Source: a virus (lineage: Duplodnaviria; Heunggongvirae; Uroviricota; Caudoviricetes). From it: 27,879 nt of DNA. The translations under genes and the position numbers were made by a program. The notes under the pieces are model-generated. The model saw only the letters and a program-made list of their open reading frames with translations. It had not been told where the DNA came from and did not search any database. The DNA is taken from IMG/VR virus record IMGVR_UViG_2648501730_000022, positions 1-27,879 of that record, one strand, 5' to 3'. The number at the start of each line of letters is the position of its first letter. Position 1 is the stretch's first letter. Of this stretch, positions 7,483 to 27,305 are shown piece after piece.

Positions 7483-7956
7483 TCATCCGGCAGTGAAGAT
7501 TTGCTGTTTCAGCGGAGCACCATCCACCGCGAAGGTAAACTCTTTGGTTACAACTTCTTCATCGCCACCGTTCATAGCAACTTTAGAAATGAAGCCGTTG
7601 AAAGCGGTGCGAATACCAGTCTGTTTTGCTGCGTCAACGTAATATTCTACTTTAATCTGAATACGAGTACCGTCTTCGGCAGCTTTGATCAGTTTTTCAT
7701 GTACCGCATCGCCTGGGATGTAGTTAACGGTCAGAGTCAGATCAGGAACGTTCAGCTTCCCTACCAGTTTACGGTTATACTGAGAAGAGAAGGATTTAAC
7801 TTCTACAGTACCGCGCTCGATACCAGTTTCAGGAAAACCAGCACACTCTTTAATTTCTTCGTAGCTTTCGTGGTCGAGAGCGGTATTAGTGGTGTCCGCG
7901 TGATAGAACAGACTTACCAGACCACCAGTAAAAATATCTTTGAATTGCTGAGACAT
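7483..7956 (-). CDS. Putative major tail tube protein (157 aa)
   Basis: Short protein upstream of the chaperones and tape measure, followed by a strong terminator. ATG at 7954-7956 preceded by a GGGG Shine-Dalgarno. Homologous to the N-terminal ~160 aa of the 277-aa protein at 11595-12428 (shared DIFTG, FP.T, LTL, KA.ED motifs). Confidence 0.5.
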   Translation of the reverse strand: MSQQFKDIFTGGLVSLFYHADTTNTALDHESYEEIKECAGFPETGIERGTVEVKSFSSQYNRKLVGKLNVPDLTLTVNYIPGDAVHEKLIKAAEDGTRIQIKVEYYVDAAKQTGIRTAFNGFISKVAMNGGDEEVVTKEFTFAVDGAPLKQQIFTAG

Positions 7957-7986
7957 AGAATTACCCCTTAATTAAAATTGTTATTA

Positions 7987-8005
7987 CGGGGGAACTAGTC
8001 CCCCG
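7987..8005 (-). other. Hairpin CGGGGGA-ACTAG-TCCCCCG between fibre and tail tube genes
   Basis: 7-bp perfect stem; the same stem sequence recurs at 25555-25573. Confidence 0.5.
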
Positions 8006-8012
8006 ACTTTTA

Positions 8013-11000
8013 TTATTTAGTTGCTTTCAGTTCGGCAATTTCTTTCTGTAATGCTTCGATCTGGGCTTTATATTTGGCGTCCATTTCCTGCATAGCTTTG
8101 ATGATTAAAGCATTGACAGCAGAGTTAGAAATAGTCTTGATTGCTTCTGGATTTTCTGGATCTTCGGTGGATTGAATACCTACTGCTTCCGGCAATACTT
8201 CTTCCAGATCCTGAGCAATAATACCTACTTCGCGTTTAATCACACTACGGTCTTTAAGAGATTTAACTTTATCGTAGGTGTAGACTTTCAGTGAGTTTAC
8301 TTTCTCTAATGCGCCGTCCTGTAATTCTTCCTTGTTAATCTTCAAACGGGAGTCAGAGCGAATGTAAACATCGTTAAACGAACCGTTACGACCTGCGGTA
8401 AAGTCACCAGCAGCGTTAAAGTCAAAGTTAGTATCATGAACATGGAGACGAACAAGAGCGTTACCGATAGTACCGTCAGGAACGTGCACACCCATTGCTG
8501 CAATGTGATATTTACCCCAATGCGTCGCTTTCCATACGTTATGTGCCGAGTTGGTGGATTGAGGACACCCAACCATAAGACCAGCAGCACGGTCACGCCA
8601 GCTAGCCCAACTACCGCCAGCAACTTCACCACGAATCAGGCCATTACCGCCACCGGTTACAGTACCAGATTCCAACTGGATCATCTTATCCGCAAGTTTC
8701 CACGTCTGGGCTTGTTTCTGACCACGGAAGCGAATAACACCAGCATCATCGGAATACATCAAACCTAGTTCTAAGCCATTCGGATCTCTAAACCACAAAT
8801 GCTTATTACCAGTGCGCTTAAATTCAATATCAGCACCGTTAAGCGTGATATTACCGCCAGTGTGAATTGCTTGAGGCTTAACAGTACCGTTGATGGCAAA
8901 CTCAATTGCCGTAGTACCCGGACCGCCCGGACGTTGGGTATACCAATGCCAACCGCTTTCATCAGCACATTCAAATACTTGTTTACGAGCATCAGCGCCC
9001 CATGCACGAATATTGAAACTAGAAGTAGCTGTACCCTTACCCCAGCGAATCAGACCAGCAGATTCCAAATCACCGAAGAATTTAGTTTTAATCGCACCAG
9101 TTGCTAAAGTACGTTCAGTGGTGAAGTGAGCACCTTTACTATCTTCAAGCTGTATAACGTTATCACGAGCGTTATTGCTATCGCCCCAATGACTCAAACG
9201 GAAATAGTCGCGGGATTGTCCAGCACCAGCATCAAATGTTAAATATTGGCCTTTAATGTATGTGTTTCCAGCAAAACGAGCAGCACGACTTGCACGTTCT
9301 AAGACTAATGCACCTTCGTTACCATCACCACCCAAAGTAACATTACCGCTACCCAGATTGTAAATGAATGGACGATAGCCGTTCCAACCACCAAATTTAT
9401 CATTTTCGGCAGTAGACAGAAGATATACGTTTTGACCATCATTACGCCAGAATGCACCATAGTTACCGTAAATCATACGGAATGCATCACTGTTAGCAGC
9501 TACATATTGACCATTGGTGTATACAATTTTGGTAGCACCTGTGCTTAAAGATACTTGACCACTTGCTTCTAATTTAACAAAGTTTTTACCTTCGTCACTA
9601 TACCATTGAAAATCGTTAGTATCTGTAGAACCAAAACCAAACCAGCCTTGACGTTTATTAGCCCCGTCTCGCTGATCCATATATTCAAAATAGTTACTAC
9701 GACCAGTAGGACGCCACATACGAATCGCGTTATTGCCTTGCAGATGAAGTCTATCGACAAATAAACCATCACTACCAACAATTTTTAATACTTCTTTTTG
9801 GTCGGTGGAACCAGTAGCCAAACGATACACATCACCTTGAACAGTTTCATGCCATATTGTTTCCGCCGCACGACTGCGGAATTTACGCATATATTTTTTA
9901 TTGTTGTCTGGTACGTTATTAAGGCTCACAATATCATAGGTTGCTTGTGAGTTATTATCAAACATCAACGTTCCGGCTTTGTTTTCGGTGTTGAACATCG
10001 TAATAACACGAGCATCGGTAACACCAACAGAAGGTTTAACGAGAGTTAATTCAGGAACATCATGTACTGTCAGAGTAACGCCATCAGTTTTACCGTATTC
10101 GACAATAACGTTATCGGTGTAACGACCGTAGTTAACGTAGATATCGTAGTTATCACCGGAAGTATTAACCGCAAATACTTGATGAACGTTCAGAGCATTT
10201 CGACGATAAGCAGCAATACTAACGCCTTTCGGGTTATTGTTACCGGAACGGATGACAATTTCTACAAAGTCAACCTGATCATAAGAGTTAACGTTATAAC
10301 CATTACCACCGAAGATACGAAGCATTACCATTCGACCATTCTGTGGGATCGTAGCGGTTGCGATCTTGAAGTATCCACGAGTAGCATCACCAGAAGGAAC
10401 GGTCATTCTAACGTTCTTGATGAACATCTGATCAACTTCGGCTTTACTATACACACCCAATTCAGTCGGAGTCGGCTTATCACCTTCGTGATACATGCGG
10501 TAGCTGAATCGCTTATTACCATCTTTATCAAAGCCATAGGTTTTAACTTGAGATGAGCTAGACCCATAGTGGAACTCAAAACCGCGACCGTGTGCTTTAC
10601 CGCCAGAATGAGGAATGTTAAGGATTAAGTTACCCCAACCTTCGGCATTGTTTGGACGGAATGCACCAAAATAATCAAGGTTACGAGCACCAGCATCATC
10701 AAAATAGTTAGCTGTTTTGGTTAACAGATAGCCGTGATGGTAAGTGTTGGTATTCTTCTTGATGTAAGCAGCATCGGCACTACCTTCAATAGAATCAATT
10801 CGCTGGTTAGCTGCGGCAATTGCGGCATCAGTAGAAGATTTATTCTGGTCTACCTTGTTGTTAATTGCTGTATGGTTGCTATTAACTGTCCCCGTAAGAT
10901 TGGTGATCTTCGTGTCGGCATCGCGTTTATTATTTGCTACGGTCGTTTCTATGGCTGATTTATTTGCTGAGACAGTATTCGTTAAGTTAGTAACGTTGGT

Positions 11001-11513
11001 ATTAGTCTGATCAACTCGTGCATTAATATCTGTCTTGTTCTTGTTAATTGTTGCGTTGATAGTATCGCGGGTTGAAGTAATAGTCTGATTCAGTTCAGTC
11101 TTAGCAGCCGCCAGAGCGTTAGCCGCTTCGGTTTTATTGTTACCTACTGTGGTAGTCAAAGCATCAATTCGTTTGTTGGCTGCGGTGTCGCCAGCAGTGA
11201 TTGAAGCATTGAGAGCATCACGGGTAGAAGTGATAGTCTGATTCAGTTCAGCTTTAGCACTAGCCAGATTATTAGCGGCTTCTTGTTTGTTGGAAGCAAT
11301 AACACGGTCAGTGCTAGTTTTGTTATTGTCTACTTTCGTATTCAGTTCAGCGTGTTTTTCTGGAGAAACACTAATTTGGACTACGTTATTATTTTTGTCT
11401 TTGGTGTAAATCACATGATCCGCCAACTGTAAGGCGATTTCACCCTGTGATAATTGTTCCGGCGTTGGTTTTTTACCCGCCGTCTGTGTGCGTTTAAATT
11501 GGATTGATTGCAT
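8013..11513 (-). CDS. Long side tail fibre (1166 aa) with C-terminal intramolecular chaperone / peptidase S74-like domain
   Basis: ATG at 11511-11513 with GAGGTGA Shine-Dalgarno. Internal ~52-aa repeats near the N-terminus; a central motif (DESGWHWYTQR) recalled as P2 gpH / lambda Stf-like; C-terminal ~110 aa (SDSRLKINKEEL...VGIIAQDLEEVLPEAV...) matches the self-cleaving chaperone of T5 pb1 and K1F endosialidase. Confidence 0.75.
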   Translation of the reverse strand: MQSIQFKRTQTAGKKPTPEQLSQGEIALQLADHVIYTKDKNNNVVQISVSPEKHAELNTKVDNNKTSTDRVIASNKQEAANNLASAKAELNQTITSTRDALNASITAGDTAANKRIDALTTTVGNNKTEAANALAAAKTELNQTITSTRDTINATINKNKTDINARVDQTNTNVTNLTNTVSANKSAIETTVANNKRDADTKITNLTGTVNSNHTAINNKVDQNKSSTDAAIAAANQRIDSIEGSADAAYIKKNTNTYHHGYLLTKTANYFDDAGARNLDYFGAFRPNNAEGWGNLILNIPHSGGKAHGRGFEFHYGSSSSQVKTYGFDKDGNKRFSYRMYHEGDKPTPTELGVYSKAEVDQMFIKNVRMTVPSGDATRGYFKIATATIPQNGRMVMLRIFGGNGYNVNSYDQVDFVEIVIRSGNNNPKGVSIAAYRRNALNVHQVFAVNTSGDNYDIYVNYGRYTDNVIVEYGKTDGVTLTVHDVPELTLVKPSVGVTDARVITMFNTENKAGTLMFDNNSQATYDIVSLNNVPDNNKKYMRKFRSRAAETIWHETVQGDVYRLATGSTDQKEVLKIVGSDGLFVDRLHLQGNNAIRMWRPTGRSNYFEYMDQRDGANKRQGWFGFGSTDTNDFQWYSDEGKNFVKLEASGQVSLSTGATKIVYTNGQYVAANSDAFRMIYGNYGAFWRNDGQNVYLLSTAENDKFGGWNGYRPFIYNLGSGNVTLGGDGNEGALVLERASRAARFAGNTYIKGQYLTFDAGAGQSRDYFRLSHWGDSNNARDNVIQLEDSKGAHFTTERTLATGAIKTKFFGDLESAGLIRWGKGTATSSFNIRAWGADARKQVFECADESGWHWYTQRPGGPGTTAIEFAINGTVKPQAIHTGGNITLNGADIEFKRTGNKHLWFRDPNGLELGLMYSDDAGVIRFRGQKQAQTWKLADKMIQLESGTVTGGGNGLIRGEVAGGSWASWRDRAAGLMVGCPQSTNSAHNVWKATHWGKYHIAAMGVHVPDGTIGNALVRLHVHDTNFDFNAAGDFTAGRNGSFNDVYIRSDSRLKINKEELQDGALEKVNSLKVYTYDKVKSLKDRSVIKREVGIIAQDLEEVLPEAVGIQSTEDPENPEAIKTISNSAVNALIIKAMQEMDAKYKAQIEALQKEIAELKATK
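11051..11300 (-). repeat. Tandem in-frame ~156-nt repeats inside the fibre gene
   Basis: Two near-identical blocks (...AGTCTGATTCAGTTCAG...) encoding repeats of the form A.AK.ELNQTITSTRD.INA.I; further diverged copies upstream. Confidence 0.6.
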
Positions 11514-11544
11514 CTAGAATCACCTCACTATAAAACAGGAATAA

Positions 11545-11562
11545 GGGAGGCGTTAACCTCCC
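11545..11562 (-). terminator. Hairpin GGGAGG-CGTTAA-CCTCCC between the 277-aa gene and the fibre gene (attenuator-like)
   Basis: 6-bp GC stem followed by a U-rich tract on the minus strand, upstream of the fibre Shine-Dalgarno. Confidence 0.4.
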
Positions 11563-11594
11563 AACGTTCATGTTTTATTTAGGTAGGAGAATCC

Positions 11595-12428
11595 TTAGTA
11601 TTCGCCGAAATCGATCCGGTCAGTCTTAGCCACTGCGCCAATTTCGCTAGGTGTCGGTTTCTCATTGGTGGAATATACCTTGATCCATTCAGAACGACCG
11701 TTTTCCTGAATATTTCGGACACGTAAACGCGGTGCGCCAGAAGTATTACAGGTTAATTGCCATGCGCCATGCTCATTAGCTTGAAGGTGAATTAATGCTG
11801 TGTCGGTTGAATATGGATTACCGCTAGCAGTTCCCTTGTAAGTTACGAAACGGTTTCCGGCTAATGCCTCGCTGTCAATCGGACCCGTGAATGGATTTAC
11901 ACCAGCACCCAAACCAAAATCACCCTGACGTAAGATCCGGCCTTCGGTAGCAATACCCCTTGCCAAAATCCCGCCATCTGGTTCAAGTTTAAATTCCAGT
12001 GTTACAGCTTTGTTATCACTACCACGGGTTTTATGTGATGTGACGTAAGCATCGAATATACAAAAGTACCCTGTGTTAGCAGCACTATAGCCAGAGTTCA
12101 CAACATAGAACATACGGAAGCGTAAAGGTGTTTTATCCTCTACCGCTTTCATCAACATTGCTTGATGTTCATCGTCAAGAACACGGTTTAATGTGAGTGT
12201 TGTCGGTTCCAGTCTACGATAACCAGCAAGTTTCCCCGTAGCGTCCTGATCGTACTCTTCCAGAGTTTCTATCTCTGTGGATTCGGTTAGCGTAGGGAAT
12301 GCTGCGATGTTCTCCATAGAACTAAAGCTAGGATCGAAAAAGTCGACCTGATTGTCTATCTGGTTAGAGATCGACACTTCAACATGTGATCCAGTGAAAA
12401 TATCTAAGTTATCTTGTGTAATATTCAT
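11595..12428 (-). CDS. Tail-tube-like paralog with extra ~115-aa C-terminal domain (277 aa)
   Basis: N-terminal ~160 aa homologous to the 157-aa tail tube protein; unique C-terminal domain. Confidence 0.45.
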   Translation of the reverse strand: MNITQDNLDIFTGSHVEVSISNQIDNQVDFFDPSFSSMENIAAFPTLTESTEIETLEEYDQDATGKLAGYRRLEPTTLTLNRVLDDEHQAMLMKAVEDKTPLRFRMFYVVNSGYSAANTGYFCIFDAYVTSHKTRGSDNKAVTLEFKLEPDGGILARGIATEGRILRQGDFGLGAGVNPFTGPIDSEALAGNRFVTYKGTASGNPYSTDTALIHLQANEHGAWQLTCNTSGAPRLRVRNIQENGRSEWIKVYSTNEKPTPSEIGAVAKTDRIDFGEY

Positions 12429-22030: not shown

Positions 22031-22645
22031 AGTGGAAATCCTCTAAAAGAAAGCGAATCAATCTAATATTATTTATAAAGAGAAAATTCTTGTTATTATG
22101 AAAAGAGTGATCTGGTAGAGTCCAAAACTGGTCTGTACTTGAAAGATGATTGGATTCAGTCGGGCTAAAGCCCCCCTTCATAGATTTGATTAAATCATCA
22201 TCAAAACGAAGAAGTATCTTTAGAATATAAGAATCTTTCTTTTGAAGAAATAATAATCAGGAAGCAATTTAGCAACCGAAGGTTGCAATCCCGAAGGGAT
22301 ACCAATACCTTTCTAGAAATTGATTGTTACTCACTTCGTTCGTTTACTAGAATCAGTTAGTAACTAGTATTAAATCCCTTTCTAAGAAAATCCTTTTAAA
22401 AGTGAGTGAACGCCGTAGGCGTGAACGTGAGCGAAGCGAACTATCAATCCCTTTCGAATCCTGCTTGCAGGTCTTAGAAGGTGTTGGTGGGCGCTACGCG
22501 CACGGCTACGCCGTATTCTTTTTGCGAGATCTTTCTTGAACGTAGTGAGAGAAAGCGAGCAAAAAGGAGAACGTTAGTTCGAATTTTATATTCTATGGTC
22601 TGTGGGGTATAATACCTTTCAAGGTCATACACTTACGTGATTGAA

Positions 22646-22764
22646 GTGTAGGGTTAGTGTAGGTGTGTAGGTTTCATAGTGTAGGTTTGAGGGTGTTATA
22701 GTGTAGGTTTACTGGCTAGTGTAGTGTAGGCCAATCCCTTTAAAGGGTAGGTGTGTAGTGTAGG
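22646..22764. repeat. Iteron-like direct-repeat array, 7 copies of GTGTAGG (mostly GTGTAGGTTT)
   Basis: Copies begin at 22646, 22657, 22665, 22679, 22701, 22724 and 22758, same orientation, irregular spacing; the 12-bp palindrome CCCTTTAAAGGG (22735-22746) sits inside the array. Confidence 0.7.
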
Positions 22765-22961
22765 TTTTCAATCAAAAATTTTGACAAAAAATTCTTGTAT
22801 ATTATTCAACCAAAAAACCACCAAAAATAGATGTAAATTCATGATTTAAAAGAAATTTTCAAAAGATCTCCGTGCCATATAAGGTTTAAAAGGTTGATAA
22901 TCATTATTTGCCATTTTCAAACAAAAATTTTGATACACCTTTCTCGCTTAGATCATGAATG

Positions 22962-22990
22962 TTGACATGTGTCAAGAACTATTTTATACT
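22962..22990 (+). promoter_or_regulatory. Near-consensus sigma70-type promoter with operator-like palindrome over the -35
   Basis: TTGACA (22962-22967), 17-nt spacer, TATACT (22985-22990); TTGACAtgTGTCAA is a 14-bp palindrome. Confidence 0.5.
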
Positions 22991-23128
22991 TTTTATCCTT
23001 GGTAGGGGTTGAAATTTTCCAAACAATCCCCATATAGATGATAAGCATGATTTTTCGTGTATAAATACAATGCATGAAAAATGATTGTTCACTTCTGAAA
23101 ATCCCTTGACTAACTGTTAATTCATACA

Positions 23129-23155
23129 GCACTGGTTAGATATGCAGTGCTTTTT
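23129..23155 (+). terminator. Intrinsic terminator ~140 nt downstream of the promoter
   Basis: GCACUG-(10-nt loop)-CAGUGC followed by U5. Confidence 0.5.
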
Positions 23156-23334
23156 CGGTCGAATATTGTACGAATTGATTAATTATTAATCTTCTCTTTA
23201 GCAATTCGTGCTCCCACTGATCGGATATACAGTTGTTTTACAGAGTTTTTGAAAATCATTTTTATAAATAGAATTGTTCAGAGCGAAAAGCTCTTTTTTA
23301 AGGAATTATTAATCCACATGTGAGGAATCGATTT

Positions 23335-26537: not shown

Positions 26538-27305
26538 ATGAAAAACATTATCGCTGCTATCATGCTTTCTGCTACTGCTTTCGGTGCTGATGCTGCGTCC
26601 TTTGATTGCACTAAGGCTACTACCAAATCAGAGAAGTTTATTTGTGCTAATGAGTCAATCTCCGCACTGGATTCTAAACTTCATGAAGTATATGTTAAGG
26701 CTGTTAAGATTAATCCGTCTCTTAAACAAGAGCAACGTAACTGGAATAAAACTGTTCGTGACACAATGATCAATATCGGGCAGATTCAGCCACTGGAGGC
26801 TGTATACAACGCTCAAATCCAAAACTTGATGAATGTATTATCTAAAGAAGAAACCGCGTCAGGGAGCGTTTCAGAGACTTCTGCGAAGGTTGAAGAAGAA
26901 CAACCGAAACAGGAAGAAAAAGTGGTGGAAGAACCGAAGGTTGAAGATAAACCAAAAGGATTTACCGGAGACATGACATTGCAATGCGATGTTCACTATA
27001 GCTGGGAAATCCAAGACGGGGTAGAAACAAAAGCAGTTAAAGACATTGGCTATCCTCGTTATAACTCTGGTGAACTTAAACTTAAAGTAAAAGACGGGGA
27101 AATTATTGAATTTGTGTATCGTGATAATTATGACGCGCATAAAGCAAAGACAAAAACAGTGACGCATCAGAATGGCGCAATGCAATATGAAGGCCAAGTG
27201 GATAACAAAAAATATTATGTGTGGCGTGATAATCAAGATATGATTCGCTTAGAAGTACATAAAAAATATTCAAGAACATACATTGACCAGTACGGGTGCA
27301 AATAA
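26538..27305 (+). CDS. Secreted protein with LprI / DUF1311-like N-terminal domain (255 aa)
   Basis: Signal peptide MKNIIAAIMLSATAFGADA; then FDCTKATTKSEKFICANESISALDSKLHEVY...QRNWNK, the DUF1311 pattern; AGAGG Shine-Dalgarno before the ATG. Confidence 0.6.
   Translation: MKNIIAAIMLSATAFGADAASFDCTKATTKSEKFICANESISALDSKLHEVYVKAVKINPSLKQEQRNWNKTVRDTMINIGQIQPLEAVYNAQIQNLMNVLSKEETASGSVSETSAKVEEEQPKQEEKVVEEPKVEDKPKGFTGDMTLQCDVHYSWEIQDGVETKAVKDIGYPRYNSGELKLKVKDGEIIEFVYRDNYDAHKAKTKTVTHQNGAMQYEGQVDNKKYYVWRDNQDMIRLEVHKKYSRTYIDQYGCK

Follow-up and report, generated by a model that had tools for sequence, protein, structure and literature searches.

The window analysed here is a 27,879-nucleotide (nt) stretch of viral DNA (IMG/VR record IMGVR_UViG_2648501730_000022), the late region of a ca. 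35-kb Escherichia coli prophage in which every structural gene lies on the minus strand. Three of its genes encode a 277-amino acid (aa) protein, a 1166-aa fibre, and a 157-aa major tail tube protein. The 277-aa protein, hereafter called the anchor, is probably a low-copy paralog of the tube protein that forms a ring in the tail and anchors the T-even-type fibre by a joint of the gp36–gp37 type. This interpretation is based on the relationship between the two tube-like proteins, on the sequences of the anchor C-terminus and the fibre N-terminus, on codon usage, and on the conservation of the locus in related prophages.

A sequence-only reading of this stretch had described the three proteins and had taken the 277- and 157-aa proteins to be products of a duplicated tube gene, the longer copy having an additional C-terminal domain. 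The three open reading frames (ORFs) are present on the minus strand as described. BLASTP aligned residues 3–163 of the anchor with the whole 157-aa protein (30% identity over 163 columns, 56 bits, E = 1e-14), and residues 164–277 of the anchor were extra. The N-terminal motif DIFTG… is common to both proteins, and both matched PHROG 158 ‘major tail protein’ (anchor, E = 1.3e-8; 157-aa protein, E = 3.1e-21). The 157-aa protein also matched Pfam Phage_TTP_11 (E = 1.7e-6; 28.3 bits against a cut-off of 28.4 bits) and is labelled ‘phage tail tube protein’ by the Prokaryotic Genome Annotation Pipeline (PGAP), while no Pfam match was obtained for the N-domain of the anchor. The tube gene stands directly before the genes for the chaperone pair and the tape measure in all relatives, with a gp38-like gene between them in the window clade, and the short paralog of relatives bears an Ig-like C-terminal domain typical of major tube proteins.

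In an AlphaFold2 (AF2) model of the anchor built with 15 homologues, residues 13–162 were modelled confidently (predicted local distance difference test, pLDDT, ca. 80–95). The best matches of this N-domain in PDB and BFVD were siphophage tubes (lambda gpV, 80alpha, YDC107, monocin, and SPP1; E ca. 3e-7), and Hcp of the type VI secretion system was a lower-ranked match. The model retains the whole tube fold including the long β-hairpin (strands 117–137 and 140–163). Midpoint-rooted neighbour joining placed 80 anchor N-domains and 81 tube proteins in two separate pure clades, a pattern that fits one old duplication retained since. The proposed duplication of the tube gene is thus supported by alignment, fold prediction, and phylogeny.

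Close homologues of the anchor, all 275–281 aa long, occur in E. coli, Shigella, Salmonella, Providencia, Edwardsiella, and Proteus. The absence of a functional annotation (PGAP assigns ‘hypothetical protein’) would agree with a functionless, decaying duplicate, in which case the fibre N-terminus would attach to another tail protein. This explanation is extremely improbable and is already contradicted by the conservation data. The ORF is intact and of constant length across the six genera. Both anchor domains are under purifying selection, as is the tube (ratio of nonsynonymous to synonymous substitutions, dN/dS, 0.00–0.28; 0.00–0.15 in the N-domain). Moreover, 80 distinct N-domain sequences are all kept beside a tube gene, and the C-terminal motif described below is invariantly paired with the N-domain encoded by the next gene.

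The fibre had been thought to lie next to head-completion genes. This did not hold, because the 277-aa protein is a tail protein and the gene upstream of it encodes a tail terminator. The AF2 model of the 140-aa product of that gene (pLDDT 79) had terminators and caps as its top Foldseek matches in PDB, namely those of the NF5 and SaPI1 necks, lambda gpU (3fzb), T5 p142, T1, and the monocin cap (E = 7e-6 to 1e-3; template modelling score ca. 0.5–0.6). No sequence match to the 140-aa protein was found in Pfam, PHROG, or PDB. Searching PDB by sequence gave nothing useful for either the 277-aa protein or a profile built for the 140-aa protein. Since the terminator fold is found in the 140-aa neighbour, the 277-aa protein is an additional tube-like part, neither a terminator nor a head-completion protein. 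Its assignment as a tail terminator or completion protein was rejected, with the gpU fold in the neighbour and the N-domain of the anchor matching tubes.

The extreme C-terminus of the anchor, …VYSTNEKPTPSEIGAVAKTDRIDFGEY (…IDFGEY), corresponds to that of T-even gp36 (RB49 gp36, …YHEGNKPTPADVGAVPLNAVIDFGTF, …IDFGTF; T4 gp36, …SVQDFGYY). In a BLASTP comparison of seven proteins, residues 210–277 of the anchor aligned with residues 430–496 of RB49 gp36 (E = 7e-6) and the alignment reached both C-termini; a 482-aa relative (L3_482) matched RB49 gp36 with E = 4e-17. RB49 gp36 matches PHROG 16472 end to end, and relatives of the anchor match the last ca. 75–110 positions of this family (E = 7e-20, 8e-18, and 1e-13). 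On the other side of the presumed joint, the fibre starts with MQSIQFKRTQTAGKKPTPEQLSQGEIALQLADHVIYTKDKNNNVVQI. Its residues 1–63 aligned with residues 4–66 of T4 gp37 (E = 2e-12), and its N-terminus aligned with residues 4–54 of RB49 gp37 (E = 1e-10). In T4, trimers of gp36 bind to gp37 at its N-terminal region (PMC3004832). With a gp36-like tail on the anchor and a gp37-like N-terminus on the fibre, the pair therefore reproduces the gp36–gp37 joint in the same gene order. Judging from these sequences, the tube paralog most likely anchors the fibre via a joint of this type.

The two motifs were examined in 27 loci taken from IMG/VR, GenBank, and assemblies. The anchor ended in D-[FLA]-G-x-[FYE] in every one of them, and the following gene product invariably started with the motif FKR…G.KP…GE..IN..D..I (27/27). 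Relatives in which the tube paralog is continuous with a gp36-type connector are called split type below, and those in which it is continuous with the fibre itself are called fused type. The gp36-like tail ends 16 of the 17 closest split-type representatives (342–1209 aa, plus one 117-aa fragment).

The identity of the 1166-aa protein as a fibre, also claimed earlier, was borne out. It matched Pfam Gp34_trimer (residues 608–718) and Peptidase_S74 as well as PHROG 1699 ‘long tail fiber distal subunit’ (E = 7e-137), and the DNA at 8109–10731 is 74–87% identical to gp37 of RB49-like Krischvirus phages. By sequence comparison, it was confirmed as a T-even-type distal long tail fibre. It consists of a gp37-type docking domain (aa 1 to ca. 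55), a helical repeat shaft (ca. 55–245), a gp37-like body, and an S74 intramolecular chaperone (aa 1053–1111, nt 8181–8357). The shaft is internally repeated (…AKAELNQTITSTRDALNASI…, …AKTELNQTITSTRDTINATI…), comprises ca. 190 residues, and does not occur in RB49 gp37. In Proteus, the fibre is split into a 198-aa shaft protein, which has a gp37-type N-domain and ends in …MDFGTF, and a 675-aa protein in which the N-domain is found once more at the start. By these motifs, the Proteus system is a predicted three-link chain in which the 198-aa shaft protein lies between the anchor and the distal fibre and the same plug and socket are used twice. The fibre of the window looks like an in-frame fusion of two such links.

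A gp38-type adhesin gene lies on the 3′ side of the tube gene. Its 168-aa product matched Pfam Gp38_N (E = 1.9e-15) and PHROG 1121 ‘tail fiber adhesin’ (E = 3.3e-33), and a 62-nt stretch of the gene is 85% identical to Krischvirus gp38. This gene belongs to the fibre system. In the window clade it is located past the tube gene and its terminator, and in five other loci (L045–L049) directly past the fibre gene, before the tube gene. The idea that the tube gene splits a gp37–gp38 pair was weakened, as the Krischvirus donors have the two genes ca. 58 kb apart and relatives have gp38 before the tube gene. In a second E. coli clade (L028, L031, and others), ORFs of 101 and 111 aa, to which no function was assigned, are found between the fibre and tube genes.

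The segment of the anchor at aa 160–200 (ca. 11,830–11,950), LRxGD[FY]G[VIL]G[AS]… (GDFGxGAG), is invariant or nearly so in the split and fused subfamilies; in the window protein, its conserved residues are G169, D170, G172, G174, and G176. It may guide the polypeptide from the ring into the trimeric fibre. The same segment could be a separate binding surface if the tube-like domain acted outside the tube, either as an adaptor on the tube, Dit, or tip, possibly as a trimer, or as a fibre assembly factor absent from the virion. The fibre-type C-domains are expected to be trimeric by analogy with gp36, and a trimer would suit them better than a hexamer. We consider this alternative improbable. 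The N-domain keeps the full, confidently modelled tube fold, its best structural matches are all ring-forming tubes, and it has been conserved under purifying selection through the whole history of the lineage. In addition, complete fibres are covalently fused to this domain in the sister subfamily, which speaks for a virion component.

To estimate relative expression, we used the fraction of E. coli optimal codons (Fop). Fop was 0.74 for the tube gene, 0.72 for the capsid gene, and 0.36–0.60 for every other gene; the anchor (0.53) equalled the terminator and the portal. Strong terminators were found only past the capsid and tube genes, whose codon bias exceeds that of all other genes. These two hairpins have nearly the same sequence (AGCCCTGCC…GGTGGGGCT followed by a T-run). 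The one past the capsid gene folds at −17.3 kcal/mol (z = −2.35 against shuffled sequences), and the centroid fold of the one past the tube gene is −17 kcal/mol. They look like paired attenuators that set blocks of high and low expression in the late operon. From codon usage and terminators, the 157-aa protein is therefore the abundant tube and the 277-aa protein a low-copy part, which fits a single ring.

These estimates bear on whether the anchor co-polymerises with the 157-aa protein at many positions, so that fibres or stubs would stand along the tail, much as lambda gpV or SPP1 gp17.1* decorate their tubes. Mixed stacking is conceivable from the tube fold and the DIFTG… motif common to both proteins, and C-terminally decorated tube proteins are common; the C-terminal domain of the relative L3_251 is Ig-like. 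Nevertheless, such an arrangement is most unlikely, as the codon usage of the anchor is that of a low-copy protein (Fop 0.53 against 0.74), and the separate clades of anchors and tubes with only ca. 30% identity suggest specialised contacts. A 1166-aa fibre on each ring would also be implausible both sterically and economically.

Under the preferred interpretation, the 157-aa protein would build the bulk of the tube, and the N-domain of the anchor would assemble as one ring, or a few, in register with it. The anchor C-domains would trimerise like gp36, so that a ring of six subunits would carry two fibres. The fibre would dock non-covalently, head to tail, by its gp37-type N-domain on the gp36-type connector; its S74 chaperone would be cleaved off, and the gp38-type adhesin would cap the tip as in T2-type phages. 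The product would be a siphovirus tail with T-even-type distal half-fibres for the first, reversible binding to the cell. The gene layout would have arisen by tandem duplication of the tube gene, with the fibre as a detachable 3′ part of the upstream copy.

As to the place of the ring, the sequence-only reading had envisaged a neck or collar. Its suggestion that the longer paralog anchors the fibre stood, given the gp36-like C-terminus and the gp37-like fibre N-terminus, but the neck or collar is only one of three possible locations, and the nearest solved precedents, T5 p140 and the Ur-lambda Stf collar, are distal. By analogy, we give nearly even chances to a ring at the distal end, next to the Dit ring. 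This position is favoured because T5 p140, T4 gp54, and the Ur-lambda Stf collar are distal and because fibre length does not track the tape measure (rho = 0.006, n = 59), the latter being weak evidence on position. A less likely arrangement, to which we still allow an appreciable minority chance, is that the anchor forms the last ring under the tail terminator, with the fibres at the neck as whiskers or folded along the tail. The genes are ordered stopper, terminator, anchor, fibre, and tube, and the anchor gene starts 9 nt past the terminator gene. Siphophage gene order often mirrors virion order, and the distal p140 of T5 is encoded distal to its tube gene. Furthermore, the related locus L013 has inherited the terminator together with the anchor N-domain at 100% identity. 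Against this, tandem duplication is sufficient to account for the adjacency, linkage confounds the co-inheritance with the terminator, and all solved siphophage side-fibre anchors are distal. A tube paralog that adds only past the last tube ring would require extra specificity, the length of the fibre is unrelated to that of the tape measure, and by a rough estimate a neck-attached fibre of this size would fall short of the tail tip.

Several points weigh against the anchoring ring as a whole. The gp36 match of the 277-aa protein itself is weak (33.5 bits; PHROG 16472, E = 0.009), and the strong gp36 statistics come from relatives, not from the window protein. No match was found between the anchor and positions 1 to ca. 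390 of PHROG 16472 (RB49 type) and PHROG 1425 (T4 type), which represent the N-terminal part of gp36 (MADLK.GST.GGS.IW…) that binds gp35 near the knee, and homologues of gp35 and gp34 were not found in the operon by Pfam or PHROG. With a tube fold in place of the gp36 N-terminal part, the anchor is therefore not a gp36 orthologue, and only the connector is shared. The AF2 model of residues 163–277 was poor (pLDDT < 50) and unusable, and the Fop values depend on the list of optimal codons chosen for them. The ring, its copy number, and its position are predictions, and the mismatch between a hexamer and trimers must be accommodated. The gene order terminator–anchor–tube would indicate a proximal ring if it mirrored virion order.

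The layout is kept in ca. 120 related 28–36-kb Enterobacterales prophage loci, and a profile search of 1.84 billion representatives yielded 301 relatives of the anchor. More than 100 further clusters contain 400–1560-aa proteins that combine a tube-like domain with a complete fibre, in many cases with an S74 chaperone at the end. In ca. 70 loci with synteny to the window, a single polypeptide comprises the tube-like domain together with a whole fibre (415–1217 aa), and its gene lies directly upstream of the tube gene. This fused type was found in 69 IMG/VR loci and four genomes (Pluralibacter, Scandinavium, Buttiauxella, and Phytobacter), with the order terminase, portal, capsid, tube-domain–fibre fusion, tube, chaperones, tape measure, Dit-like protein, and tip. 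A profile search of genome contigs confirmed four loci with the fused-type alignment and none with the split-type alignment. The fibre had been regarded as inserted between two tube gene copies. This description requires revision, as the sister subfamily has the tube-like domain and the fibre as one gene upstream of the tube gene, and therefore the fibre is a detachable 3′ part of the anchor unit.

Comparison of the window with locus L013 indicated where this part can be exchanged. DNA identity was 100% from 12579 to ca. 11980, 72–89% in the anchor C-domain, and 50–88% in the fibre, and it returned to above 90% near the 3′ end of the fibre gene. Synonymous divergence (dS) rose from 0.04 in the anchor N-domain to 1.0 in the C-domain. 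The drop in identity and the jump in dS at the domain boundary show that an exchangeable fibre cassette starts there, inside the anchor gene. On the strength of these alignments, the tube-fold domain is part of the tail chassis and the connector travels with its own fibre.

The hairpins noticed earlier on both sides of the fibre gene, which had been taken as signs of separately tuned expression, are both present; the stronger terminators, as described above, lie past the capsid and tube genes and not beside the fibre. The 81-nt spacer between the anchor and fibre genes has a predicted RNA fold of −28.5 kcal/mol (z = −5.0 against shuffled sequences), and its hairpin GGGAGGTTAACGCCTCCC is exact in 35 loci. 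RNAalifold detected no covariation in this hairpin because the core sequence is invariant. One candidate role of the spacer structure would be to mask the Shine-Dalgarno sequence of the fibre gene and so link fibre translation to that of the anchor. The Shine-Dalgarno sequence of the fibre was predicted to be paired with a probability of 0.72–1.0, and still 0.63–0.80 with shuffled 5′ arms; masking exceeded that of shuffled controls in three of seven variants, and the variant of the window was not among them. The hairpin between the fibre and tube genes has a 7-bp GC stem with no T-run on the coding strand and is exact in 17 loci, but it folded no better than shuffled sequences (z = −0.95).

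The tube gene of the window clade ends in TGA followed by an in-frame open stretch, and 13 sequence variants of this stretch all keep the TGA, the frame, and the absence of an internal stop, with indels in multiples of three nt (36, 39, and 41 codons). In other clades, the tube gene ends in TAA followed by a terminator. Judging by this pattern, UGA read-through may yield a minor, C-terminally extended tube subunit, similar in effect to SPP1 gp17.1*.

Coordinates of the features are summarised in Table 1.

Table 1 Features of the window, listed in the direction of transcription of the late operon.
Feature	Position	Strand	Remarks
gpA-type large terminase	19371-17467	-	
164-aa protein	17394-16900	-	
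Lambda-type portal	16889-15378	-	
Protease-capsid fusion, 668 aa	15332-13326	-	Peptidase_S78 and HK97-type capsid protein in one polypeptide
Terminator-like hairpin and T-run past the protease-capsid gene	13191-13170	-	9-bp stem, 6 GC pairs, TTTTTT
96-aa head-tail joining (gpFII/stopper-like) protein	13134-12844	-	Phage_attach match and position; weak assignment
140-aa tail terminator (gpU-like)	12860-12438	-	Predicted structure
277-aa anchor protein (whole gene)	12428-11595	-	
Anchor N-terminal tube-like domain, aa 1-160 of 277	12428-11949	-	
Anchor C-terminal fibre-type domain, ending in …EKPTPSEIGAVAKTDRIDFGEY	11948-11595	-	gp36-like tail
Anchor-fibre intergenic region, 81 nt, with hairpin 11562-11545	11594-11514	-	
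1166-aa fibre	11513-8013	-	
Hairpin between the fibre and tube genes	8005-7987	-	
157-aa major tail tube protein	7956-7483	-	
Tube-gene TGA and in-frame open 39-codon stretch TNEELPEPEPQPEHEAVVIPEVEEVTAKATAKRSRKAKD, then TAA and terminator	7485-7363 (open stretch 7482-7363)	-	
Terminator-like hairpin and T-run past the tube gene	7358-7334	-	10-bp stem, 6 GC pairs, TTTTTT
168-aa gp38-type (T2/RB49-type) tail-fibre adhesin	7314-6808	-	
Tail assembly chaperone pair	6762-6071	-	
Tape measure	6067-3713	-	
Dit-like 186-aa protein	3662-3102	-	
Two further tip proteins and a J-like tip protein	downstream of the Dit-like gene	-	

In the protease-capsid protein, an acidic linker joins the prohead protease (Peptidase_S78) and the HK97-type capsid protein, and the fusion is kept throughout the lineage. 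The 96-aa protein matched Pfam Phage_attach slightly below the cut-off (E = 4.4e-5; 24.4 bits against 26 bits), and its gene has the capsid gene on one side and the terminator gene on the other. The early region has almost no recognisable functions except for a Rha-family protein (21203–20406) and an LprI-domain protein (26538–27305). At ca. 22,180–23,320, between divergent early-region genes, ca. 1.1 kb is AT-rich (GC content ca. 0.36). This stretch, in which no ORF exceeds 59 aa, may have a regulatory function or contain an origin. Neither it nor the rest of the window matched an Rfam family.

E. coli chromosomes hold copies ca. 90% identical to the prophage. In strain H2 (NZ_CP028733), hicB is interrupted by the element and a gene for a large serine recombinase adjoins it. 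The DNA of the anchor and the terminator was present in 54 of 5,426 complete E. coli genomes (ca. 1%), always with the annotation ‘hypothetical protein’. Among 50,697 GenBank phage records, tblastn with three N-domains of the family found only ‘Escherichia phage DCP80’ (PQ671644.1; L001), a 141-kb record labelled as a T4-like Gaprivervirus. Positions 1–22,437 of this record are a siphovirus-type module from terminase to tail tip, and past this ca. 22-kb module it has T4-like genes such as that of endonuclease VII. Most probably, sequences of a T-even phage and of an induced prophage were joined in assembly to give this chimeric record, which, if so, would be a hint that such prophages are packaged.

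Taken more broadly, these data point to a large, as yet uncultured lineage of 28–36-kb Enterobacterales prophages whose fibre is built into the tube wall, an attachment principle unseen in solved virions; we hold this reading only tentatively, at somewhat less than even chances. It comprises a tube paralog covalently joined to the fibre in the fused type and to a T-even gp36 connector in the split type, a six-fold ring that carries two three-fold fibres, and direct exchange of gp37/gp38 cassettes between myoviruses and siphovirus tails with the breakpoint inside the anchor gene. In open-access text, we found no description of a tube-domain–fibre fusion, of this side-fibre attachment, or of this hicB prophage. 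If the reading is true, a single anchor ring would set the number and position of the fibres, and the gp36–gp37 joint would be a portable plug and socket outside T-even phages, with a socket that can be placed on an unrelated scaffold. Such a socket would be useful for engineering the host range of siphophages or tailocins. The cassette boundary in the anchor gene would be a natural swap point of receptor-binding modules between T-even myoviruses and temperate siphoviruses. A function is also proposed here for a protein annotated ‘hypothetical protein’ in the RefSeq records examined.

We know of only two solved cases of side-fibre anchoring on non-contractile tails. These are T5-like phages, with a p140 ring and a p132 collar (PMC10038345), and Ur-lambda, with the Stf collar (PMC12617516). 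The locus of the window suggests a third way. The known part of it is the anchoring of side fibres by an extra tube-like ring, and the new part is a tube paralog that itself bears the fibre or a T-even connector. In T5, p140 is a duplicate of the tube gene and forms one ring between the tube and Dit, around which the p132 collar holds the fibres; T4 gp54 forms an extra ring similar to p140, and it was stated that anchoring must differ in other siphophages (PMC10038345). Like the 277-aa protein, p140 is encoded beside the tube gene, and its ring is the place of side-fibre anchoring, as is presumed for the extra ring here. However, p140 is undecorated, and a separate Ig-like dodecameric collar of p132 holds three L-shaped pb1 fibres, whereas the tube paralog here would itself bear either a connector for the fibre or the fibre as a whole. 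The Pfam and PHROG matches of the neighbouring genes included nothing like p132, although no search aimed at p132 was made. The two systems also differ in divergence, with p140 and pb6 being 9% identical and the paralogs of the window 30%, and in the side of the tube gene on which the duplicate lies (distal in T5, proximal in the window).

With T-even phages, the anchor shares the C-terminal segment of gp36 (KPTP…G-A-V…IDFG-x-aromatic) and the next gene shares the N-domain of gp37 (IQFKR…GE-AINL-D…), in the same order of connector and then gp37. The likeness to RB49-like phages extends to the fibre body (74–87% DNA identity to Krischvirus gp37) and to the presence of a gp38-type adhesin. Unlike in T-even phages, the connector is grafted on a tube-fold domain, the distal half-fibre would be used alone and on a non-contractile tail, and the fibre has an extra helical shaft of ca. 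190 residues compared with RB49 gp37. The Stf of Ur-lambda is likewise a trimeric siphophage side fibre with a gp37-like distal part that serves fast, reversible adsorption, and its collar lies at the gpV/gpM junction; it differs in being self-anchoring, with 12 N-terminal domains (β-sheet and helix) that form the collar and hold four fibres (PMC12617516). The stf gene of Ur-lambda lies past J at the end of the tail operon, and Stf has no tube-fold domain. Tube-fold domains with a C-terminal extension outside the tail are represented by lambda gpV, with its Ig-like domain, and SPP1 gp17.1*. Their decorations are small monomeric Ig or FN3 domains on the major tube, and they occur on all rings or on part of the subunits. 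Unlike these, the protein described here would be a separate low-copy paralog that bears a trimeric fibre module. In this respect it may resemble Hcp of type VI secretion systems with a C-terminal effector, in which a specialised paralog of the tube ring is fused to cargo, although both the system and the cargo, toxins, differ from those of the window.

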